A model generated the notes under the pieces. It was not told the DNA's origin and made no database searches. It saw only the letters and a program-made list of their open reading frames with translations. A DNA stretch of 64,000 nucleotides, taken from Candidatus Eiseniibacteriota bacterium. Lineage in GTDB: Bacteria; Eisenbacteria; RBG-16-71-46. Positions 27,380 through 45,200 of this stretch are shown here, in pieces. The position numbers were made by a program, and so were the translations under genes. The stretch spans positions 2,048,001 through 2,112,000 of the forward strand of contig OY970178.1 in the NCBI GenBank assembly GCA_963707915.1, written 5' to 3'. How positions within the stretch are numbered: position 1 is the stretch's first letter; every line of letters begins with the position of its first letter.

Positions 27380-29431
27380 GTGCGCAGAGTCACTCTGATG
27401 GTTCTGGTCGCTGGGGCTGCGGCGATTCTCTGTGCGCAGGGGCCCGTCTCTGCGATTGGCGATCCCCGGGGCACCGCGAGATCCGTTCATCCTCCCGATG
27501 CGAGGGCCGAACTCGCCGCAGTGCCGAGTGCTACCGAAAGCGTGGCCGACACGCAGTGGGCGTCCAACGGACGACCGATCTGCATCGCCTCATACGATCA
27601 GGTGCTGCCGTCGGTCGCATCGGATGGCGAGGCGGGTGCATTCGTTGCCTGGACCGACTATCGACCAACCGGCCCGAGGGTGTTCATGCAACGCGTCCTA
27701 GCCGATGGTGAGATCGCCCCGGGATGGCCTGCCAATGGCCTTTCGGTTTCGCAGGCGGCGCAGTTCGTGCAGGGACCAGCTAGCGTGGCCGACGGCGATG
27801 GGGGCGCCTACGTGGTCTGGGCGAACGGCACGAATCACGTGTATTCGGTGTTCGCCCAGCATGTCGACGGATCGGGCAACGTCGCGGCCGGGTGGCCCAC
27901 GGAAGGCCTCCATGTGGCGACGGCCCCAGGCAATCAGTACAGACCCTGCGCGGCGACCGACGGCGGCGGCGGCATCTACGTCGTCTGGCAGGATGACCGC
28001 AACGGGGTGGACAACCCGGACCTGTACATCCAGCGAATCGGGATGGACGGGACGCCCGCTGCCGGCTGGGACTCCACCGGGACTCCTCTGTGCACGAGTC
28101 CTGGATTTCAGTACGGGGCGGCGCTTTGCCCCGACGGATCGGGCGGCGTGATCGTGGTCTGGGTGGACGGCTATCAAGTTTCTGCCATGCGGATGACTTC
28201 CGCCGGGGTGCCTGCGTCCGATTGGCCGGTGAACGGCGTGATCGCAAGGTCGGACACCACGTACGTGCAGAACGCTATCGTCGCCAGCGACTCGGCAGGT
28301 GGCTGCTTCGTCAGCTGGATCGACAATCGCGAGGCAGGGATCTCCGTCTTCGTCCAGCACCTTGGTTCAACGGGACAGTCCGCGGTGGGGTGGCCCAGCG
28401 GAGGCAGGCCCGTAGGTGCGACCGGAGTGATCCAGCAGTTTCATGCAATTTCGGCGGACGGCTCGGGCGGCCTTTACGTGGCCTGGTGGGAGGAGGTCGG
28501 GCTCCGTGCGACCCGGCTCACGAGTTCCGGTGAGACGTCGTTGCCGTGGCCTGCCGACGGACAGATCATCAGTGGTCCGTGGATGATCCTCGGCTACGGT
28601 GCACCGGTGCTGCTCACGGACGCCAATCTAGACCTGCACCTGGTCTGGAACGAGGAACGGTATCTGAACCCTTCGGGGCTGGATTTGTTCGCGGTCTGCC
28701 TCACGCCTGACGGTGCCTTCGCTCCTGGCTGGCCGGCTGGGCCCATGGTGTTCTGCAATGCGTCCGGGAGTCAGGGGTCACCAGCAGCGGTTCTCGACGC
28801 GACTGGCTGCACAGTCGCCTGGAAAGACCAGCGGAACGGGAACTGGGACATCTACGCGGCTCGACTCACGGGGGACGGGATCGTGCCGACGCTGCTGGCA
28901 CTCGCCGACGTCAGCGTCGAGCCGGAACGGGTCCGCTTGCGTTGGTACGCGGGGAGCGGTTCACCCGTCGCCGCAACCGTCTATCGCCGCACTCCGAGCA
29001 GCGAGTGGAGCCGCCGCGCGGAGTGCGAAGCAAATGGATCGGGGTTGTTCGTCTACGAGGACGATGACGTGCTGGCGGGTGGTCGATACGGCTACCGCCT
29101 CGGAGCCGCCAATGGGGTGGGAGACGCGCTCACCGAGGAGACCTGGGTGGACGTGCCGCAGTGGGGCGCGCTGGTGCTCGCAGGCGCATGTCCGAATCCT
29201 GTGACGGGGACACTGACGGTCGCCTTTTCCCTTCCGACCGGCGCTCCTGCGACGCTCCTGCTGCTGGATGTGAGTGGGCGACGGGTGATCGAAAGGGAAG
29301 TCGGGCATCTAGGTGCGGGGAGACACCTGCTGCCCTTGCTGGGCACGGCACAGCCTGCAAGCGGCGTGTACTGGCTTAGATTGACCCAGGGGCGCGAAAC
29401 GGCAACGACCCGCTGTGCGGTCATCCGGTAG
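27380..29431 (+). CDS. Secreted repeat protein (DGxGG-x-VxW repeats) with C-terminal FlgD/T9SS-type-A-like sorting domain
   Basis: Signal peptide, about 7 repeats, and a C-terminus PNP...LDVSGRRV...SGVYWLRLTQG; lower GC than its flanks. Confidence 0.75.
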   Translation: MRRVTLMVLVAGAAAILCAQGPVSAIGDPRGTARSVHPPDARAELAAVPSATESVADTQWASNGRPICIASYDQVLPSVASDGEAGAFVAWTDYRPTGPRVFMQRVLADGEIAPGWPANGLSVSQAAQFVQGPASVADGDGGAYVVWANGTNHVYSVFAQHVDGSGNVAAGWPTEGLHVATAPGNQYRPCAATDGGGGIYVVWQDDRNGVDNPDLYIQRIGMDGTPAAGWDSTGTPLCTSPGFQYGAALCPDGSGGVIVVWVDGYQVSAMRMTSAGVPASDWPVNGVIARSDTTYVQNAIVASDSAGGCFVSWIDNREAGISVFVQHLGSTGQSAVGWPSGGRPVGATGVIQQFHAISADGSGGLYVAWWEEVGLRATRLTSSGETSLPWPADGQIISGPWMILGYGAPVLLTDANLDLHLVWNEERYLNPSGLDLFAVCLTPDGAFAPGWPAGPMVFCNASGSQGSPAAVLDATGCTVAWKDQRNGNWDIYAARLTGDGIVPTLLALADVSVEPERVRLRWYAGSGSPVAATVYRRTPSSEWSRRAECEANGSGLFVYEDDDVLAGGRYGYRLGAANGVGDALTEETWVDVPQWGALVLAGACPNPVTGTLTVAFSLPTGAPATLLLLDVSGRRVIEREVGHLGAGRHLLPLLGTAQPASGVYWLRLTQGRETATTRCAVIR

Positions 29432-33137: not shown

Positions 33138-33260
33138 AGCAGGGCGCCCGCCGGGCGGAGGCCTTGCCCGCGCTCCCGCGTTCGCGGACCGCGGCAGTCC
33201 GCGAACGCGGAACGGGCGGGGTCAGCGCCCGCCCGCAGATGGCCTGGGGGGCGCGACACG

Positions 33261-33683
33261 GTGCGTGATACCGCTTCGCTGACTGCCTGAAACACGCGGT
33301 CCCGCGCCGCGCCCCTTGTGTCGGTATTCAAGCACCCGGCGAAACCGCGAGTCAACGGAGTTCGCAGGTTCGATCCCGGCGAACGGGATGGTTTCGCCGA
33401 CGGGGAGAATCGGCGACAATGGGGCCGCATGATGTCGCCCTGGCCCGCGCGGTGGAGCCGTCGCGCTTCACCGGACCGCCTTCGCGCACCCACCGGAGAG
33501 CCGCATGAGCCTCAGCCGCTGGTCCGTAGCCGCGCTCGCGATCGCGCTCGTCTGCCCCTTCCCCGCCATGGCCGCTGACGCCGGCGCGCTCGACTCCCTG
33601 GTCGCCGCCGAGCGCGCCTTCGCCCGGGCGTCGATCGAGAAGGGGGTGCGCGACGCGTTCCTCGAGTTCCTCGCCGAGGACGG
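33261..33683 (+). repeat. Left copy of a ~423-bp direct repeat bounding the island
   Basis: Manual alignment to 44779-45200 shows about 12 substitutions and 1 indel. Confidence 0.93.
33505..33683 (+). pseudogene. Truncated 5' fragment of the DUF4440 gene
   Basis: Same first ~59 codons as 45022-45906 (MSLSRW...FLAEDG), then unrelated sequence to a stop at 33771. Confidence 0.85.
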
Positions 33684-33781: not shown

Positions 33782-34177
33782 CTACCGTCGGCTGACGGGG
33801 TAACCACTGACCTCCAGATTCAGCTGTGCTTCCGCCACCTGACGCAGGAACCCCGGTTCGAACACGACACTACACGCGAACATCCGTCGGCCTCCCACGA
33901 ACAGCGCGACGTCAATAGTGCTCTCCGCTCCTGACGCCAGTAGGTCATCTATCATTCCTCGATGCCTCTTTAGATAACGTCGCGTGCTTTCTACCAGCTG
34001 CCCTGCCGTCTCTGCCTTCGCTACGCCTACAACAAGCCCGTTCTTATCTGCCACGCGCCCAAGCGCATCCGCCTCGCCCTTGCGCCATACCTTGTTGGGC
34101 CTGAGCCTTGGCCACCTCTTAGAGAACACGTCAACATCAAACCGCTCCCCAGCGCTACGCAGCACTGCACTGAACAT
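33782..34177 (-). CDS. Candidate immunity protein (DUF4279-like)
   Basis: 131-aa ORF starting 47 bp after the toxin stop; VWRKGE...IDVALF..VVFEPGFLRQVAEAQLNLEVSGYP pattern; lowest GC in the region. Confidence 0.6.
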   Translation of the reverse strand: MFSAVLRSAGERFDVDVFSKRWPRLRPNKVWRKGEADALGRVADKNGLVVGVAKAETAGQLVESTRRYLKRHRGMIDDLLASGAESTIDVALFVGGRRMFACSVVFEPGFLRQVAEAQLNLEVSGYPVSRR

Positions 34178-36822
34178 GGCTGTCTCTCGCTTGTCGGCCT
34201 TCTCGCCCTTGCTACGTCGGAACTTCACACCCCTGGCATTCGCCGGGCTCCCCGGGGCAGCAGGAAGTCGAAATAGTCGTCTCTCGGAAGCCACACAGGA
34301 ACTGGCACGGCCAACGGCGAGCGGAACCCCGGCGGGTTCTTGGGAGTCCTCAGCCAGGTCTTCCGCTTCCCCGCTCGTGGTTTGCCCTCGTCTTCCCATT
34401 GCTTACACCATCTCCGAGCCTCTTCGCGCGTCAGAACGCGGCCGTGTGGCTCATTGGGCAACACATTCTCATGGAGCCACTCCCAGAACTCCTCACTGAG
34501 GCCGAATCTCGGATCTGTCGCTCTCGGCCAAGTCCCCTCGGGGTCTGTGAAGCCCACGGGATCCCCAAACGCAAAGAGATAGAGATTCTCGCCTCCTGCC
34601 GAGAGCCCCGCCGGATCCTTGCACGTCCACCTTCCCACACCCGGATCATAGTCCCTCGCGCCGAATCTCACCAGCCCTGTTGCCGCGTCCCATAGCCCGC
34701 CGGCGTACCCGAAGCACTGGAACCCAACGTTCGTGTCCTCGAGCACACGCCCGTACGTGTCATAGTCCATCCGCTGTACGGTTTCGCCCGTGGCGGCATC
34801 CAGCACTAGCCGCACCGACCCAAGGCGGTCCGACACAATCCTGTACGTATTCCCGTTCCTCACCATGTACTCCGGCACGTTTCGCGCAGCGCCATAGACA
34901 TACCGCGCAACTACGTTCCCCACGCTGTCCAACTCAGCAACTGGTTTCAGTTGATCCTCGTAGAGCCATCCCCGCCTTAGGACTCCGTTCCATCTGCACG
35001 CGACCCGCCGACTGAGACCGTCGACAAGATACTCCATTAAGTCGCCGCTGGGGAATCCAACCGTCACCAAGTTACCGAGGGCGTCGTACGTGTAGCGGAT
35101 GGTGTCTGCACCAGTCGCCGCCGTCTTGAGTTCCCCTGCCGGTGTGTAGGCGTAGCTGGTTCCGCCGTACCTCAGTAGCCGGTCCTGCGCGTCGTACGTC
35201 GCAGTGCTGGTGTCGCTCGCGCTGCTGTGCGCCAAGCGGTTACCGTTGCCATCGTAGCTGTAGTGCTCTGTGACGCCGTCGACCGTGGCCGCCGACACGA
35301 AGCCCGAGTCTGGACTGCCGTAGGCGAAACCGTATGAACGCTCAGTGCCCTGCACCGTCTCCATCACGCCCACGACGCGCCCCAGTGAATCACGACTGTA
35401 CGTAGCCTCATACAGCGTGGTGCCGTTGGACCTCACCGTGCGCCGCCATAGCTCACCAACGTGCGAGTAGCTGTCCGTGGTCGTGACATTCCCTAGTGTC
35501 GTGCTGGAGACCAGCCCGTTGTCCAACCGTCTCGTGATGGATAGGTCGCCAGCCTGAGTCATCAGCCCGTCAGCGTCGTACGAGTAGACGACGGTGTTGC
35601 CCCCATTGACCCGCTGGCTTGCCACACGGAAGTCGCGGTCCAGCGCCACCGAAACGCTCCCGGTCGCGCGACCGCTCCAGGCTTGGATCGTGTCCACCGG
35701 ACCATCGTAGCCGTACGACAGAAATATGCTGTCCGGCGAGCTGATCGTGTGGAGCTGTCCTGTACTGAGGTAGGACAGTTGTGTGGTGCCACGGCCCATC
35801 CCGATGGCGTAGAGGCGCCCGTCGCCAGACCCGTAGCTGGCTGTCACGTATTCGCCACCGGGACGGTCGCTCCGAACCTGCACTCCGTCGTGGTCGTAGC
35901 TGTATGCGGTCACGGAGTCCGTCTCGCCAGCACCCGGCGCGACGTACGTGCTCAGCGAGTTCACACCATTGTACTCATACGCATGCTGCGGCCGCCCGGG
36001 CGGGGTTATGCCGACGAGGTTCCATTCCTCGTCATGGGACAGCGCGATGGTCCTTCCGCCCGGGAGTCGAATCTCCGTCGGCCGGTCATCAGACAGGTAC
36101 GACAAGCCAGTGACTCGACCCAGTGTGTCACGAATCGTGTTGAGGCGCCCATGTGCGTCGTAGCTGAAGCGGGCGCCTCGCCCGCCCTGATAGACGTGCG
36201 TTGGACGCCACCACGCGTCGTAGCTGCAGTAGAGGGTGGCGAGTCCCTGTACCGACACGCTCTGGACTCGACCTGCCGAGTCCACAACGGTGGTCCTGAC
36301 CCGCCCGGATGGCGAGTACTCCCTCAGGATTAGGCTGTCGGGGTTCGAGTTGAACGTCGTGCGGTACGCCGCGCGCGAGTTGATGCTGACGTCCTGCGTC
36401 CATGTCCCGGTGACCGCAGGAGGAGCGTAGTGCGAGGGCATGGTCCGCGACACCTCGACGGTCCTGGTGAGTCCACTCGGCAGGGTGGTGCGCCTGAGTC
36501 CCAGAACCGGGACTCCCATCCCAAACCGGAGGTCTGGCATGAGGCTGTCGCTGGTGACTATTCCATCCGGCGCATGGATGACCCGCCATCTGCCGTCGCT
36601 GGACTCCGTCATCGTCGTCGAGAGGCCAGCGGGGTCAATGACCTCCCGCTCCCGACTTCCGTCCCAGTTGCCTGTCACCGCATACCCAGTGACGCGCCCC
36701 TCTCCACTGGTCACTTCAACGGTCCGGCGCATGCCCTCGAAGATCGGGGTGACGTAGCCCCCGGAAGCTGACACAGAACGAGTAGCCAGTCCTCTGCTAG
36801 CCTGAACGGCACGGAGGATCTC

Positions 36823-37092
36823 ATGGCGAGCACGGGGAAGCGTTACAGCGAAGAGCAGATCATCGCGATCCTGAAGGAGGCGGACAGCGCCGGGAACGTC
36901 GGCGAGCTGATCCGGCGCCACGGGATCTCCGCCCACACCTACTACCGCTGGAAGAGCAAGTACGGTGGCCTGGAGGTGAGCGAGGCGCGGCGGCTCAAGC
37001 AACTCGAGGACGAGAACCGCCGACTTAAGCGGATCGTCGCCGACCAGACGCTGAACATCCAGATCCTGAAGGAAGCGCTGGGAAAAGACTGA
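36823..37092 (+). CDS. IS3 OrfA
   Basis: RYSEEQIIAILKE..TYYRWKSKYGG..LKQLEDENRRLK; ends at the probable -1 frameshift site GGGAAAAG. Confidence 0.92.
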   Translation: MASTGKRYSEEQIIAILKEADSAGNVGELIRRHGISAHTYYRWKSKYGGLEVSEARRLKQLEDENRRLKRIVADQTLNIQILKEALGKD

Positions 37093-37940
37093 CGACGGCT
37101 GCGGCCCGGCGCGCCGCCGTCCTGGAAGCCCGTTCACGCCATGCCGGACTCTCGGAGCGACGCGCCTGCACGGTGCTGGGTACGCCGCTGTCGGGCCAGC
37201 GCTATCGATCACGTCGCGCTCCGCAGGAGGCGCTGCGCCAGCGGCTGCGCGAGCTGGCGCTGATCCGGCTGCGCTGGGGCTATCGGCGGTTGCATCGCGT
37301 GCTCACGCGCGAGGGGCTGCGGGTGAACGTCAAGCGCGTCTACCGCCTGTACCGCGAGGAGGGTCTGGCCGTGCGGCGGCGGAAGCGCAAGCGGGTGGCG
37401 GTGGCGCGGCAACCGATGCTGGTGCCGACGCGGCTGAATGAGTGCTGGGCGATGGACTTCATGTCGGACGTGCTGTCGAGCGGACGACGCTATCGGGTGT
37501 TCAATGTGGTTGACGTGCTGAGCCGCGAGGCGCTCGCCGCCGAGGTCGACACCAGCCTGCCGGCGGCTCGGGTGATCCGGGCGCTGGAGGAGATTGCGAT
37601 CATGCGAGGCTATCCGGCGCGGATCACGCTCGACAACGGGCCGGAGTTCCGCAGCATGGCGCTGGACACCTGGGCGTACGAGCACGGGGTGGTGCTCGAC
37701 TTCATCCAGCCCGGCAAGCCGATCCAGAACAGCATGGTGGAGAGCTACAACGGTCGGATGCGTGACGAGCTGCTCAACCTGCACTGGTGGCGGAGCATCG
37801 GCGAAGCGCGCGACGCGATCGACGCCTACCGGCAGGACTTCAACGAGGCCCGGCCACACAGCGGCCTCGGTCACAAGACGCCGAGCGAGTTCGCCCGGCA
37901 CTATGCGGTAAACTCGAACCCGCAGCGGCTGGCCTCTTGA
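37089..37940 (+). CDS. IS3 OrfB DDE transposase (probably expressed by -1 frameshift; start approximate)
   Basis: WGYRR, WAMDF, DNGPEF, PGKPIQN..ESYNGRMRDE and RPHSGLG motifs. Confidence 0.92.
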   Translation: MTTAAARRAAVLEARSRHAGLSERRACTVLGTPLSGQRYRSRRAPQEALRQRLRELALIRLRWGYRRLHRVLTREGLRVNVKRVYRLYREEGLAVRRRKRKRVAVARQPMLVPTRLNECWAMDFMSDVLSSGRRYRVFNVVDVLSREALAAEVDTSLPAARVIRALEEIAIMRGYPARITLDNGPEFRSMALDTWAYEHGVVLDFIQPGKPIQNSMVESYNGRMRDELLNLHWWRSIGEARDAIDAYRQDFNEARPHSGLGHKTPSEFARHYAVNSNPQRLAS

Positions 37941-40900
37941 TCTGTACCAGCGTTGGGGGCTACGTCAGGGGTGCTCAGCTGCTGCTGGATTCCCGTCGAG
38001 AGCGGCGCCCAATCCTCCGCCAGTCGCCCGTCACTCGCGTAGGTGAACGTATGTTGGTTACCCACGGCGTCTGTGTAGCTCTCGAGCAGACCACTGGTGG
38101 AAGTTGTAAGCGTGACGGTCGCATCCAGCGGACCACTCATCTCACTCAAGTATCCGTTTGCATCGAGCGAAAGCGTTGTGCGATGGCCGTAGGGCCCATC
38201 GATCCACAGCGGGACGCCGTTCCCGTCGCGGCCGATGGTTGTCGCCAGACCCGCCGCGTCGCGGATACTGGCCAACCGCCCCGCAGCGTCGTAGCCGAAC
38301 CGGTAGCGGATGCCTCCGGTCACTCCATCGCGCGTGTAGAGGTGTCGCCCAGCAGAATCCCCCTGCGTGGCGAACACGTACACCTCGCTGCCGTCCTTGC
38401 TTGGCACGCTGTACGCGAGCCCGTTCTCGGTGAGAGGCGGGGATTCCTTCCAGAGCATGAAGTGCCCGCCCAGGACCAGCTTGTTCTCGGGGCTGCAGGT
38501 CACGACCACGGCATGCACCAGGCTGGTCGCATCCATGGGGCCCGGTGCCTCAGCTGGCAGGGACACGGAAGGGGAATACGCGTAGACGTGCTCCACCGTG
38601 CCATCCTGGTTGCAGCGGAGCAGCAGACGCCCCCACGCAAAGGCGTAGTTGGGGGGGGAAAGCGATCGTGTCAGCAAGTAGATGGCCCCATCAGGGGCCA
38701 GCGCGATGTCGTACACCGCGCACCACGCGCTCTGGAACTCGGGTTCGTCGACGGCGGGGTAGCCGTCAAAGAACAGGCTCATGATTCCCTGGGGCGTGAC
38801 CCGGCGGACCTTGAGACCCGGACGTCCCTCGGCAATGTACAGCGCGCCGTCTCGATCGACCTCCAAGTCCTCAGGCCGCCCGATGTTCATGAGGGTCGCT
38901 CTTCCAGTCGTGTCGCTGAAGCTGGACCCACCCGCCCCGGCGTAGTCAGTGATCGTCCCGTCTGTGCCGATTCTCCTGACGCGGAAGTCTGTTGTTGACG
39001 AGTAGCTCGGACCGTTGCATTCGCCCAAGAAGAGACTCCCATCAGGGCCCAGGGCGAGAGACGAGATATGGCCGGTCCACGCGGCCTCCGTCGGCAGTCC
39101 GTCTCCACCACCCGCAACGTATCCAGCGCGTCCACCGATGACCTTGTGGATCATGCCATCAGGCGTCACAACACAGACCAGGCTCTGGTCCGGTGCCGCG
39201 TCATTGCTGGACGCGACGTAGACCGAACCGTCCGGCCCAATCGCAAGCCCGGTGATCCTGTTTGGGAAAGAGCGTTCGCGCGCGGGCCCGTCTCCACTGT
39301 ATGCGGCGCGCTGGTTCGTGCCGGCGATGCGTCTGACCATGCCGCTGCGGTCCACTCGCAGGACTGAGTACCGGCAGTCGTCTGCGATGTACAAGGCCCC
39401 ATTCGGACCGTATGCGACGCGTGTGGGATACACGGACAGCAACTCCCCCGAGTCTGGCTCGGCGGTGTCGCACAGGCCTGTCGCGAGGTTGTGCCACATG
39501 TGGCTCGGCACAGGCAGCACACCCCCATCCCCAAGGTAGACGGCACCTTCTGCCGTCGGATCGAAGGTGTGGTGTGGGCTCAGGGTCCAGCCTCCCAGGC
39601 CGTCCACAGCAGTGCCCGGCACGCCGAGGCTGATTGACTGCCGGTTCCACACGATCTGGCCGACCGCCCGGTCTCCCACCGTCAGCCCGAGCATGCCTCC
39701 CGTGTATGAGGCGTTCCCGAATGACTTCGCAAGTCGCTCCGCCGAGCCACCGGCGATCGACAGGGGGAACACATAGCCGACGCTCACCTTCGCAGTGATC
39801 GCCCGATCCACGAAGCGCCCGTAGGCGTCACGCCCATCCCACACGAGCGTCACCGGTTCCGTGGCGGACGTGATGGGACCCGGTACTCTGACTGAGTACT
39901 GCTTCCCGGCGACATCGAGATTGACGATCACCCCCTGAAGCCCGTTCGGCACCGTCTCGCCAATCACGGGGACCCGGATCGTTCGCATGACGGCATCCCC
40001 GGGCGCCCGGAAGCTCCTGTAGTTCAGGGAGTAGGGAGTGCCGGACACCGGCACACGCTCGCCCAGCGTCCTATCCTCGCACTCGATGATGGACCCCTGA
40101 ATCTCGCATGGCTCCGGGGTCTTCGACTCCATGTGCGGCACGGTCCCCGGCCTTCGCACGTAGTCCGTGAGCGGTGCCACGCTGAAGTTGCAGTCGGCAT
40201 TCGAGAACCGATCGACCGAAGTCCGACAGAGCACCGCGCCCGGGCGGTACTGGGCTGCCAGCACCTGGAGTTCGGCTGCGCCGATACCCAGGCTGTCCAG
40301 AGTCGAGGTGCTGTCACGTGATCCGTCCCCGCTCACGTCGAGTGCGGCCGTGCCAGCGCTGTCGCCAAGGACCTGGATGATGCGGGCGTCCCTGCCAGCT
40401 ACCCACCTGCCATTGCGCCGATCATAGTACCCGTAGGGCACGACAGTACCGACGGGGTAGTCGAGGAAGTTCGGGACGTAGAACACCACGGGCTTGGAGA
40501 ACACCACATCAGGGGCCGGCAGCGTGGGTTGCAGGATTCGTCCTATGGAATCGGCCTCATCCACGCTGAAGTCCACGCAGTACGTGTAGGCTGTCGCGGG
40601 GGGCAGTAGGGCTGGCATGGCCTTGGCGCCGTCCGCCCCCACGGTGTACTCGGTGAGTCGCAAGCGGATGTCGGTCAGCGCCGCGGTGTCACCGGGTGCC
40701 CGTGCGATCCGCGCCACCGTCCCCCCTTGGAACAGCACTCGGATCTCCCGGTCCCCGTTGGCATCCGTGGAGAAGCGGCCGTGCACGACCTGAAGCGAGT
40801 CGAGTTGGACCACATGCACGCGACGGCTCTTGCCGATCAGCGCAACGGTGTCCTGGATGGCGAACTCGTTCACCGCCGGCAAGCAGGCACGCTGCGCTTC

Positions 40901-42546
40901 CAGATACCCGGGCTTGCTGAAGCGCAGGGTCAACGGCGCACCGCCATTGACTACCAGGTCGAACTGGCCGTCGGCTCTGGTCGCCGTGTATCCGAATTCG
41001 TCGTGGCCAAGGACTCTCACTGTGACGTTTGGGAGCGCACCGAAGTCCCGCGCCGTGACACGCCCGCGAACAACGGCCGCCACCTCCGGCCTCAGGCTGT
41101 CTGGCACGACATCGTACTGTTGCTGAGATCCGTTCTCACCCGTGAACAGGAAGCTCACCTGGTCCAGAAACGGCGTGGTCGTGGTTGCGTTCAGGGGTGA
41201 GGGTGTGACCGTGGAGTCCGGCGGCGCACCCTCTCCGACCAGCGTGCGGAACACGTAGCGCTTGAAGCTCGTCGTGTGGCCCAGCGCATCGGTCGCGCGG
41301 AAGAAGATACCGTTGGGACCGACGTCCAAGTCCAGCGTGTCGACAAAGGTCCCAGCGGTCCCCACCGCGACCGGCTCGCCGTCCACTTCGACCACGGTGT
41401 GGGTGATGTCGCTCCACGACCCCGAGACGATCCAGAGACTATCGGTGGTCGGCGAGGTGGCCTCAGGCACGGTGAGCGTCGGAGCATGCGTGTCCCGAAT
41501 CACGGTGCGCACAAGCTCGGTCGAGTACCCCGCGCGGTTCGCGGCATGAACGGTCACCGTGTGGGCGCCCTCGGAAGACAGCGCCAGCGAGTCGGCGAAG
41601 TAGGTGGTGACCGTATCGCTCGTCACGTGCGCGGTCAGCGAGTTCACCTGCACCGTGCCGGGCGTCTCGTCGCTCACGCTGCCGCTGATCGTCACGCGGC
41701 TCGAGTCCACGAGCAGCGTATCCGTAGCCGGACGCAGCAGCGCGAGCCGGGGCGCAGTACTGTCGGTCGCCGTGACTTCGACCTGCGCGCGGGCATCCGT
41801 GCTGCCTGCCAGCGAGAGCGAATAGTCGTTGAGCGAGTCGAGTGCGACCCGCCGCGTGAGCCGGGCCGTGCCCGACCCGAACTCACTGCTGCTGATCACC
41901 TCGTCGCCGTTCAGGCCGAGGATGCCGCCGGTCACACGGTGGGTGCCATCGGGGTCGCCGTTGGTCAGGATCAGGGTGTAGGGGCCCCTCGCGCTGTCCG
42001 ACTTGGTGAACTCCCCGTCGAACTCCTGCCAGCCCGCCGGGGTGGAAGCCCGCGTGTGCGTGGCAGGCCCGTGGATCCGGTACGACGACGGGTCCGGTAT
42101 GCTCACCAGGTCCAGGCGGATGTGGCTGCCGGTTGACCCCTTCTTGACCCCCACGGTGAGTGCGTTGCTCTCCAGCGGCTCGGCCCTCTTCACCGCATAG
42201 GCCACCGTGCTGGTCACGTCCGCGGCGTTCATCAACTCCTGGTCGTTGAGGCAGAGGCTCACCTGAGCAACGCGATGGGTGCCGTTGGGGTCCCCGTTGG
42301 TGATGCGGAACTCGTACCGGCGGGAGACGTCGTAGTTGCTGAGGTCGAACGAGGTGTCCTTGACAGTCCAAGTCGGACTGCCACAAGTGAACTGACCCGG
42401 CCCGAACACCACGGTCGTCTCCGGCGGACTGCTGCTCAGACTCGTCACCCGCACCCCACCTCGCGGCAACGGCGTGCTCCCGGCCACCAGCACCAACCCC
42501 AGGAGCCCGAGCAGAACAGCCAGCGCGCGCTGCCTCCTGGCCACGT

Positions 42547-44691
42547 TCACTGGAGCACCACCACTCGGTCGGTGCGCGTCACGCGCCCCTGACCCAGGCG
42601 GATGAAGTACATCCCACTACGGAGGTGCCCGGGCAGCCTCAGTCGCACCTCATGGTCTCCGGCCCCCAGATCACCGAACTCCCGTGACAGCACCCTTCGA
42701 CCCGCGACGTCGAACAACTCGAACCGCGCCGGCTCGTTGGTCTCCAAGGTCAACGCCACGCGCACCACACGGCCGCGTTCCTCGCTGCGTGCGAACCGCA
42801 GCGCTAGCGGCTTGGGCAACGGGATCTTCACGTCCACCGTGGCGAACTGGATCTCCTGCTGTTCGTCACCGACCTTGACACTCAGCCCGTACTGGGCTGC
42901 GCTTCCAACCGGCACCGTGCGGTCCTCGGCGACTAGCAGCCCGTCGGCCGCGGCTTGAAGCGCGCTCAGCGACTGCCACGCTCCATCCCCCAGGCGCCGC
43001 TGGAACAAGAACACGCGCTTGTCCGCCGTGCTGGTGCGCCAGGTGAGCTTCGCCCGCCCCGGGCCCACCTCCACGGCCTCGAGCTTGGGGACCGGCCCGG
43101 TGCGCGGCGCCTGCAGGGCCAGGAACCCCGCCAGCGCCTCGACCCGGCCGTCCACCCAGGTGGCCAGCGCGCCCCCGGCGCCGTCAGGGGCCAGCCTCAC
43201 CGCGTACTGATCGCCACCCGCCACGCAGAGCGCCACGCCGTCGTCGGCCCACTGCGGCACCCCGGCACCGGTGATCCGCCGGGCATAGATATCGCTGTTG
43301 CCGTTGCGGCGGTCCTCCCAGGCGACGATCGCCCCGCCCACGCTATCGCTGACAAGGGCGGGCATCGCCGGGGCACCGCTCGGCCCGCAGAGCTGCACGC
43401 CGCTCGTGGGCCACTCCACGTGCCCTGCGCCGCTCAACCGCTGGGCACGGATCCCGGTCGAGTCGGCCCAGGCCACGATCGCCCCGTGCGCACCGTCACC
43501 CACCGCTACGGTCTGCCGCATCCGGCCCCGAGTGGTCGAAAGCCTGACTCCGGCAGAGGGCCAGCCGGTTGCCGGCCGGCCGTTGGCACTCAAGCGCAGG
43601 GCTGAGATCCCGGGGAGCGTATCGCGCCGGCTCCCCCAGACCAGAATCGCCCCACCCTCCCCATCGCTCGTCAATGTCGGATTCGTTGGGTCCTCGCCGC
43701 TCGTGACCAGCGTGTCGCCGCCTGCCGCCGCTCCCGCAGCGAGTTCGCCCTGCGGGGTGAGGTGCTGCACATACAGGTCCGCGACCCCACGGCGGCGGTC
43801 CCGCCAAACAATCAGCGCCCCGCCTTCGCCATCGGACACCACGGCGGGGGAACTCTGGTCGGCTGGGTGGTCGCACACCGGCACCCCATCCACACCCCAC
43901 GCGGGCTCACCGGCGCTGGTCAGGCGTTGAGCGAAGATGTCCCCGGACGCGCCGGAGCGGAAGTCCGTCCACGCCACGATCACGCCACCGGCACCGTCAC
44001 TGGCGAGTGCCACCCCGTACTGCGAACCGCGGGCGACGCAGACCGGGACACCATCGGTGGACCAACCCGGCCAGAGCGAGTCTGCGGCGGCGAAGTGCTG
44101 GGCGTAGAGGTCGCCCTCCTCCATCCGGTTGTCCACCCAGACCACGATGCCACCGCCCAGCCCGTCACGAATCATGCTCGCCGCCACGCCCTGCGCGCTG
44201 CCGAGGCAGAGCCGCGACTGCAGCAGGCTGGTGTCCGGCGCGATCGTGCCATCTGCGCCCACGTGCTGGGCCTGGATCGCCAGGGAAAGCCCGCTGCGGA
44301 AGTCGGTGCAGGTGGTGCACACGCCGGGCAGGGAATCCGGCCCTGACTCCCCGCCCGCGACAATGCCCCCGCCAGGCTGCGGGGCCCCGGGCCGTACCGT
44401 GCTCGCCACTGGCGGCGTCGCCTCGCCGGGGAAGACCTGGTCGGCACCGCCCACCTCGTGCCAGCGGCCTGACCCCGGAGTTGCTCTAGGAGGCACCTGA
44501 GTGCCGCGCGCTCCGGGCTGGGGTTGATCTACCCACGGCCCACGATCGCCCGGCGCGCCGGGCGCTGGCCGCGTGGGCTGCGGGGCTTCGTTTGGCGGAG
44601 TTGGAGCCTGCGGGGCCTTGCTGCGAAGAGTCGGGGTCCAAGCAATGCAGGCAAGGGACAGGAGCAGCATCAAACCGCGGCCAGGCCCCAT
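42547..44691 (-). CDS. Secreted DGxGG-repeat protein with C-terminal FlgD/T9SS-type-A-like sorting domain
   Basis: Signal peptide, Pro-rich linker, repeats such as SDGAGGVIVAWTD, and C-terminus FDVAGRRV...SGMYFIRLGQG. Its stop overlaps the toxin GTG. Confidence 0.78.
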   Translation of the reverse strand: MGPGRGLMLLLSLACIAWTPTLRSKAPQAPTPPNEAPQPTRPAPGAPGDRGPWVDQPQPGARGTQVPPRATPGSGRWHEVGGADQVFPGEATPPVASTVRPGAPQPGGGIVAGGESGPDSLPGVCTTCTDFRSGLSLAIQAQHVGADGTIAPDTSLLQSRLCLGSAQGVAASMIRDGLGGGIVVWVDNRMEEGDLYAQHFAAADSLWPGWSTDGVPVCVARGSQYGVALASDGAGGVIVAWTDFRSGASGDIFAQRLTSAGEPAWGVDGVPVCDHPADQSSPAVVSDGEGGALIVWRDRRRGVADLYVQHLTPQGELAAGAAAGGDTLVTSGEDPTNPTLTSDGEGGAILVWGSRRDTLPGISALRLSANGRPATGWPSAGVRLSTTRGRMRQTVAVGDGAHGAIVAWADSTGIRAQRLSGAGHVEWPTSGVQLCGPSGAPAMPALVSDSVGGAIVAWEDRRNGNSDIYARRITGAGVPQWADDGVALCVAGGDQYAVRLAPDGAGGALATWVDGRVEALAGFLALQAPRTGPVPKLEAVEVGPGRAKLTWRTSTADKRVFLFQRRLGDGAWQSLSALQAAADGLLVAEDRTVPVGSAAQYGLSVKVGDEQQEIQFATVDVKIPLPKPLALRFARSEERGRVVRVALTLETNEPARFELFDVAGRRVLSREFGDLGAGDHEVRLRLPGHLRSGMYFIRLGQGRVTRTDRVVVLQ

Positions 44692-44778: not shown

Positions 44779-45200
44779 GTGCGTGATACCGTTTCGCTGA
44801 CTGCCTGAAACACGCGGTCGCGCGCCGCGCCCATTGTGCCGGTACTCAATCACCCGGCGAAACCGCGAGTCAACGGAGTTCACAGGTTCGATCCCGGCGG
44901 ACGGGCGGGTTTCGCCGACGGGGAGAATCGGCGACAATGGGGCCGCATGATGTCGCCCTGGCCCGCGCGGTGGAGCCGTCGCGCTTCACCGGACCGCTTC
45001 GCGCAACCACCGGAGAGCCGCATGAGCCTCAGCCGCTGGTCCGTAGCCGCACTCGCGATCGCGCTCGTCTGCCCCTTCCCCGCCATGGCCGCTGACGCCG
45101 GCGCGCTCGACTCCCTGGTCGCCGCCGAGCGCGCCTTCGCCCGGGCGTCGATCGAGAAGGGGGTGCGCGACGCGTTCCTCGAGTTCCTCGCCGAGGACGG
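44779..45200 (+). repeat. Right copy of the direct repeat
   Basis: Matches 33261-33683. Confidence 0.93.

Follow-up and report, generated by a model that had tools for sequence, protein, structure and literature searches.

A teneurin-like toxin gene of Candidatus Eisenbacteria and its partner with a type IX sorting tail: a proposed carrier–cargo unit

Introduction

Bacterial teneurin-like proteins (TLPs) raise the question of how a very large toxin, enclosed in its own protein shell, leaves the cell that makes it. The family is reported from 139 TLP-positive genomes in six phyla, and signal peptides, variable adhesion domains, shell-encapsulated cleaved tips, toxicity assays, immunity genes and cryo-electron microscopy (cryo-EM) structures have been described; in that 2026 account no obvious delivery machinery accompanies the proteins and their route to targets is left unexplained (PMC13018210). 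The same question is posed by a locus in the 64,000-nucleotide stretch of DNA analysed here (the window; contig OY970178.1, positions 2,048,001 to 2,112,000, forward strand, assembly GCA_963707915.1), from a member of Candidatus Eisenbacteria with a genome of one 3.62 Mb contig (72% GC, 95% complete). Three minus-strand genes follow one another here: a secreted beta-propeller protein with a type IX secretion system (T9SS) sorting tail, a TLP, and a small putative immunity gene. On balance we consider it probable that they form a single toxin unit, in which the propeller of the first protein (the carrier) binds a pair of tip domains, named TNG here, at the N-terminus of the toxin and lends it a type IX secretion address.

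Results

The TLP gene and its interruption

The TLP gene (42550-34225, minus strand) is split in two by an IS3-family insertion sequence (IS). The N-terminal piece (37968..42550; 1527 codons from a GTG start at 42550) encodes a signal peptide, two TNG domains, two immunoglobulin (Ig)-like domains, the TTR, TIP and FN-plug domains, the NHL propeller and the start of the YD shell, and the C-terminal piece (34225..36749; 841 codons to the stop at 34225) provides the remaining YD shell, the Rhs core and the toxin tip (PF25023, TIGR03696). The signal peptide, recognised by eye, occupies 42479..42550 (about 24 aa, with RRQR, a hydrophobic core and no lipobox Cys); the Ig-like (Glucodextran_B) stalk domains lie at 41246..41761 (PF09136, 61.8 bits, two stretches) and the TTR-like domain at 40841..41086 (PF25020, E 1.5e-21), followed by TIP, FN-plug and NHL in the 9IFO alignment.

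Membership in the TLP family, a kind of protein already known, is near certain. Phmmer matched the two pieces to the Bacillus inaquosorum TLP (BiTLP; PDB 9IFO/9PT5) at E 4.8e-148 (N-terminal) and 1.1e-71 (C-terminal), and animal teneurins (TEN2/3/4, Ten-m) at E 1e-24 to 1e-33; Pfam recognised Glucodextran_B twice, TTR_TEN1-4, TEN_NHL, TEN_YD-shell and RHS repeats, and NCBIfam the Rhs core. TTR and TIP precede the FN-plug, as judged from PF25020 and from a BiTLP alignment that is unbroken from TTR to FN-plug. The FN-plug, NHL and YD shell are adjacent and in order, in a single frame only in intact relatives and interrupted in the window copy; the Pfam match to the FN-plug itself was seen in the intact relatives P0003 and P0009. 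Residues C815-x-x-Q-G819-S820 of the FN-plug correspond to the BiTLP cleavage site C719...G723/S724, and the C-terminal piece carries the Rhs autoprotease motif R...DPAG-x20-DPEG. In their spacing, the arginine of the catalytic site, the two DPxG motifs and, within the FN-plug, the Cys and Gly-Ser residues all agree with BiTLP. No lipobox and no SLH or cell-wall-binding match (Pfam scan) was found that could anchor the window TLP.

A first-pass annotation, made by a model from the letters of the window, had read the gene as one ORF (open reading frame) of ~2367 aa once the IS is removed, and coordinate arithmetic agrees, the two pieces making up 2367 codons in compatible frames; intact relatives measure 2327-2594 aa. 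The motifs that it quoted are all present in the order given, and the teneurin superfold that it recognised is borne out by the phmmer and Pfam matches above, as are the Sec-type signal and the encapsulated C-terminal toxin by the signal sequence and the Rhs core with its autoprotease motif. The signal peptide and Ig stalk, which it had singled out, are indeed present, but they are the normal state of the TLP family rather than special to this member, and its description of bacterial teneurin-like proteins as sparsely characterised has been overtaken by the published cryo-EM structures, toxicity assays and immunity genes (PMC13018210).

The IS (36750..37967, plus strand, 1218 bp) sits within the YD shell with GGGG on both sides, and has inverted ends and IS3-type orfA/orfB (HTH_Tnp_1, rve, rve_3). 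Since a second, 100% identical copy lies at genome position 456053 with other flanks, the insertion was recent. The window TLP copy is probably non-functional, whereas the immunity gene and the partner are intact; no read junction skipping the IS was found in one DNA sequencing run with a share of 0.10, possibly the source, whose reads cover the site too thinly and patchily (~1-2x) to be informative, and no RNA run with the sequence was listed. Broken or decorated copies are also common among relatives: L011 (G020) has an in-frame stop, L079 (G085) frame breaks and extra Rhs-core frames, L081 (G151) a split partner and L088 (G046) an orphan core-tip module, and some of these breaks may be assembly errors.

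A T9SS-tailed partner is linked to the toxin gene

Directly upstream, the partner gene (42547..44691, minus strand; 714 aa from an ATG at 44691) encodes a signal-like N-terminus (by eye), a low-complexity linker, a beta-propeller (repeats at ~44328-43126, TIGR04275), a fibronectin-like segment (by eye) and a C-terminal T9SS type A sorting tail (TIGR04183; 23.8 bits against a cut-off of 23, and 28.3 bits in another scan), where conservation in the partner alignment is highest. Its TGA stop overlaps the TLP start (GTGA). The same arrangement, partner directly upstream and on the same strand, was found at 20/20 TNG loci in the host family (window + 5 + 14), with a stop/start overlap at most junctions and across identities of 30-60%.

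A search of 151 genomes of the phylum located TLPs at 21 places, spread over 17 genomes that all belong to the family of the host, and at 19 of these places TNG and partner lie on one contig with the toxin. Of the remaining two, one is a sequence outside the comparison (G134:C36), in a genome that also has a partner-plus-TNG locus at the edge of another contig, and one (L017, G015:C46) is of a Cys-rich type without TNG or partner. The latter is the sole Eisenbacteria-binned TLP of another type, with repeats of 11% Cys at its N-terminus; its neighbours look myxobacterial by eye and the contig may be mis-binned. The only TNG protein outside the host family among the phylum genomes (G095) is not a TLP and lacks a partner.

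Propellers of this sort occur in several copies (10 ORFs in the host genome), and the orthology of the partners was therefore tested. In a quick tree, from which four split or cut linked partners were left out, the 16 linked partners fell on one side of a branch and 28 unlinked paralogs on the other (Shimodaira–Hasegawa-like approximate likelihood-ratio test 100). Likewise, the 16 best matches to a partner profile were all linked (at least 575 bits; next 443), and neither TNG nor TTR was found near unlinked paralogs (0/20 loci). The window itself holds another T9SS-tailed propeller protein (27380-29431, plus strand), which is an unlinked paralog outside the TLP-linked branch. The TLP appears not to act alone, a point that the first-pass annotation passed over, as it did the immunity-like gene downstream and the 422-bp repeat around the three genes. 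In the open-access literature, where subscription journals are largely missing, we found no prior report of such a carrier–toxin pairing, and no paper on an Eisenbacteria T9SS-like system or on the TNG family.

The TNG domains and their predicted contact with the partner

TNG domain 1 (42095..42424, minus strand, 110 aa) is modelled as a jelly-roll beta-sandwich and is followed by TNG domain 2 (41762..42094, minus strand, 111 aa), which accounts for the larger share of the contact predicted with the propeller of the partner. Neither matches a Pfam or NCBIfam family, in keeping with the earlier suggestion that the N-terminal domain set may be undescribed. A 12-row TNG profile retrieved 2755 cluster representatives at E <= 0.001 (862 at 1e-10), so that TNG is defined here as a large, hitherto unnamed family of surface-tip domains. 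Among 154 classified proteins (the best 150 plus earlier hits; 27 scanned with Pfam), 65 have a TTR match and the others are fragments, Ig-stalk proteins, Rhs proteins and various others; TNG usually stands directly after the signal peptide. It heads, for example, a set of secreted proteins (P0046, P0064, P0066, P0078, P0086, P0109, P0115, P0119, P0132, P0134, P0145) that share an end motif like YHVYFVRDxxGxWRxxxF, which we take to be NTF2-like, and it is also found on classical Rhs proteins (P0113, P0151) and on long Ig adhesins.

Modelled from an alignment of 74 rows, the TNG pair folded as two all-beta domains (predicted local distance difference test, pLDDT, 94.4; predicted TM-score 0.64), a model that replaced a single-sequence fold of the N-terminal 412 aa (pLDDT 31.5). 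Structurally, the closest matches were jelly-roll domains at the N-terminus of GH2 glycosidases (Z 9.7, root-mean-square deviation 2.4 Å over 101 residues, 8% identity), modestly above the Z of 7-8 typical of unrelated folds, which points to a likeness of fold and not to a function; the GH2 domain is called the 'sugar-binding domain'. Foldseek on the two-domain model gave low TM-scores (0.23-0.34).

Pairwise identities over 14 complete loci showed that the propeller diverges together with TNG (rho 0.66), whereas neither the propeller nor TNG follows the TTR-TIP-FN body (0.17 in both cases). In the relative P0003, identity is 89-95% over residues 1-300 and ~25-70% beyond. On these sequence comparisons, carrier and TNG seem to travel as a single module, one that may have been swapped between toxin bodies.

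Complex prediction for the partner propeller and the TNG pair scored 0.75, compared with 0.43 for the best control; by rough counts, 116/157 solved pairs and 2/215 mismatched pairs reach this mark. Across runs at least 61% of the contacts recur, and the pLDDT of the partner does not fall below 79. In the predicted interface one face of the propeller packs against TNG2 (strands 172-181 and 189-194) and some of TNG1, and none of the residues named belongs to the tail. To our knowledge there is no similar complex that the prediction could be recalling. Judged from these models, the partner propeller probably binds the TNG pair.

Secretion machinery in the host genome

SprA, eight PorV loci and PorU were found above curated cut-offs in the host genome, which also has 78 T9SS tail matches, 72 of them above cut-off; in the relatives, SprA is above cut-off in 35/41 genomes. 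These proteins are described as translocon (SprA), shuttle (PorV) and sortase (PorU) (PMC9127263). A T9SS-like system is thus indicated across Candidatus Eisenbacteria, outside Bacteroidota. By comparison, no member of the TssC family (TIGR03355) was found in the 95% complete host genome, in a search whose control was positive in E. coli, and no PAAR match appeared in Pfam/NCBIfam scans, so the first-pass annotation was right to see no link to a type VI secretion system (T6SS).

The toxin tip and the putative immunity gene

The C-terminal tip (34225..34530, minus strand, 101 aa) has an EFWxWxH motif and belongs to no named family, without a Pfam or NCBIfam match. Among 70 collected tips it has one relative, the tip of another TLP (P0108; 38% over 48 aa, with EFWxWxH shared), and no relatives were found by word search (of proteins of 178-2000 aa, a range that excludes full-length TLPs), in the Atlas or in two metagenome scans. 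An assignment to Ntox33 was rejected for want of a PF15533 match. Tips differ at every relative locus compared, and so do the small downstream genes; at one such locus (L014:6776-7192, G012) the TLP tip matches eCIS_core (PF13699, E 2.9e-10).

The downstream gene (33782..34177, minus strand) encodes 131 aa, or 148 aa from an overlapping GTG at 34228. Hidden Markov models (PF14106/DUF4279 included) gave no match and sequence searches no relatives, and the language-model features of the Atlas placed it with DUF4279 (0.93; 29 of 30 hits in DUF4279 clusters, 219/256 shared). DUF4279 is presented as an immunity family in two papers (PMC9424270, PMC13304343); the published DUF4279-Ntox33 pairing is not applicable here, the tip having no Ntox33 match. 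The DUF4279-like gene is likely to be an immunity gene, and the unit likely to be an antibacterial polymorphic toxin.

The cassette is bracketed by direct repeats

The three genes form an 11-kb cassette bracketed by two direct repeats that are 97% identical (410/423). Copy A (33261..33683) contains a 5' stub of a DUF4440 gene, a promoter region and the 5' part of a complete small-RNA candidate; copy B (44779..45200, 422 bp) contains a truncated small-RNA candidate, the promoter region and the 5' end of the intact DUF4440 gene. The DUF4440 gene and a cytidylate-kinase-like gene are both on the plus strand. GC content is 62-67% in the toxin gene and 70-73% in the partner, compared with 72% in the genome, and the site is empty in three genomes of the same genus (G001, G004, G005). 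The duplicated promoter and the 3'-cut copy of the small RNA around the cassette suggest, from sequence, a single-crossover integration with promoter capture. A tyrosine-recombinase-like ORF was noted by eye after the cassette of G020.

At the insertion site lies a hairpin small-RNA candidate (33248..33316, minus strand; ~68-80 nt, z -4.3; truncated copy 44779-44835), behind promoter-like sequence and convergent with the cytidylate-kinase-like gene. It has matches in 14/59 other genomes of the family, where the adjoining genes vary. In 13 aligned copies 5 of the 19 predicted pairs are changed on both sides, and the loop has one or two CGAAGCG motifs. The repeat is no tRNA, neither it nor the hairpin matches Rfam, and an identification of the hairpin as signal recognition particle (SRP) RNA was rejected because the genome has an SRP-like motif at another place.

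Discussion

In the scheme that we favour, carrier and toxin would both cross the inner membrane by Sec, and the carrier propeller would bind the TNG pair of the toxin. The tail of the carrier would engage SprA/PorV, and the toxin would either be pulled out alongside it or be held at the surface, alternatives that the evidence does not separate. A T9SS tail of its own is not open to the toxin, because the variable toxin domain takes up its C-terminal end. If it behaves as BiTLP does, its Rhs core would cleave the 101-aa tip, the YD shell would keep this enclosed until it is set free close to a competitor, and the producer would be protected by the DUF4279-like protein. The stricter form of the scheme is hitch-hiking, in which the T9SS-tailed propeller clamps the TNG tip and takes the 250-kDa toxin through or onto the T9SS-like apparatus; such co-transport is put forward tentatively, as a possibility somewhat short of probable.

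Several observations weigh against this scheme. GldM was not found in the host genome, in a search whose control was also silent, and GldK reached 85 bits against a cut-off of 350, which may mean an atypical T9SS; an alternative exit is offered by three secretin-like genes that score below the GspD cut-off, and a folded shell together with its carrier may exceed the width of the SprA pore. The same-strand partner was found at 0/77 TLP loci outside Eisenbacteria (55 with at least 2.5 kb upstream), and these include a Gemmatimonadaceae TLP with two TNG domains as well as Bacteroidetes-, Melioribacteraceae- and KSB1-labelled loci; within this sample, then, the arrangement is confined to one lineage. 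As TNG occurs in 2755 clusters, many of them of non-toxin, adhesin-like proteins, the domain is not intrinsically carrier-binding. Proximity in the DNA could by itself yield co-divergence, and the pairs compared are not independent; the linked proteins also served as the basis of the profiles and of the tree trimming, which tilts both in their favour. As to the complex model, an unrelated control reached 0.43 with this propeller, the calibration counts are only rough because our own alignments were used, and conservation at the interface does not exceed the average (TNG 0.46 vs 0.46; propeller 0.42 vs 0.49).

Much of this would also be expected if TNG domains were generic lectin-like adhesion tips, the partner being just a T9SS substrate that is transcribed with the toxin and carried along by the 5' end of the toxin gene, while the toxin exits otherwise, for example by type II secretion. 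The GH2 jelly-roll matches, the many non-toxin Ig-stalk proteins tipped by TNG, the secretin-like genes and the partnerless Gemmatimonadaceae TNG-TLP all fit such an account, which has more difficulty with the 20/20 linkage with overlapping stop and start, the dedicated partner branch and a complex model above the mark; moreover, a Z of 9.7 is near the background of unrelated folds, and a shared fold is not a shared function. We regard it as unlikely. Slightly less likely still, in our view, is a partner that binds the toxin in order to chaperone or cap it, or as an adaptor for target recognition, both proteins being exported separately and meeting outside, with the propeller rather than TNG picking the target cell. 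Linkage and complex model fit this equally well, and the variable interface residues and the size objection to co-transport speak for it, but the modelled contact covers the very propeller face that would otherwise be free for a target, the tail is the best-conserved part of the partner, and the window TLP has no anchor of its own.

One might also doubt that there is a toxin at all and see here an adhesion or signalling homologue of teneurins, whose tip would not pair with the downstream gene as toxin and immunity protein. Hardly any relatives of the tip were found and it falls in no named family, the DUF4279 assignment comes from language-model features only, and in the published assays only 3/9 selected TLP tips inhibited E. 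coli (PMC13018210). Yet the autoprotease motifs are intact, the tips are hypervariable and followed by small genes, relatives contain orphan core-tip modules, and DUF4279 is a described immunity family (PMC9424270, PMC13304343). We consider a non-toxic role very improbable.

Comparison with known systems

With metazoan teneurins (TEN2/3/4, Ten-m) the window TLP shares the TTR, FN-plug, NHL and YD-shell superfold; it lacks their intracellular domain, transmembrane anchor, EGF repeats, ABD and Tox-GHH, and retains the autoprotease motif that is missing in mammalian teneurins. The YD shell and Rhs core enclosing a cleaved tip recall T6SS Rhs effectors and Tc-toxin C subunits, which were weaker PDB hits. 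Unlike the former, the TLP has no PAAR/VgrG domain and its genome no TssC-family gene, and, unlike in Tc toxins, none of the ORFs scanned on either side resembles Tc A/B. The secretion genes resemble the T9SS of Bacteroidota (PMC9127263) in SprA, PorV, PorU and type A sorting tails above cut-offs; they differ in that GldM was not found (control silent) and GldK is below cut-off, and tail-less cargo riding on a tailed partner is proposed here as a hypothesis.

The nearest relatives in structure are the BiTLP family, whose published features (PMC13018210) recur here: a signal peptide and Ig stalk, the TTR, TIP and FN-plug domains, NHL and YD shell, the Rhs autoprotease, a small variable tip and a downstream immunity gene, putative in the window. 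The present host lies outside the six phyla reported there, a TNG pair was not seen in the domain list as available, and the terms Eisenbacteria, T9SS and type IX are absent from the supplement text consulted. The window TLP has no lipoprotein, SLH or cell-wall anchor and its copy is IS-broken, and, whereas published TLPs come without obvious delivery machinery, it follows a dedicated T9SS-tailed partner. What is new is this seemingly obligate partner, predicted to hold on to a tip domain that had no name, in Candidatus Eisenbacteria. It amounts to a specific two-protein delivery hypothesis with a predicted interface between two small soluble parts (~400 and ~220 aa) and, if true, would give bacterial teneurins a concrete delivery route and tail-less T9SS cargo a defined carrier–cargo pair.

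The closest conceptual precedent, itself a hypothesis, is provided by the TANFOR toxins of Bacteroidetes, which carry Sec signals and are enriched beside T9SS-tailed genes, and for which that study could only speculate on T9SS export of tail-less polymorphic toxins (PMC7073777). The likeness extends to the Sec signal, an unnamed N-terminal domain, a C-terminal toxin and T9SS-tailed neighbours; the difference is that the protein described here is teneurin-like, with no TANFOR match in NCBIfam at E <= 0.1. The TANFOR case is one of neighbourhood enrichment, whereas the window family has one orthologous partner at 20/20 loci and a modelled interface, and lies outside Bacteroidota.

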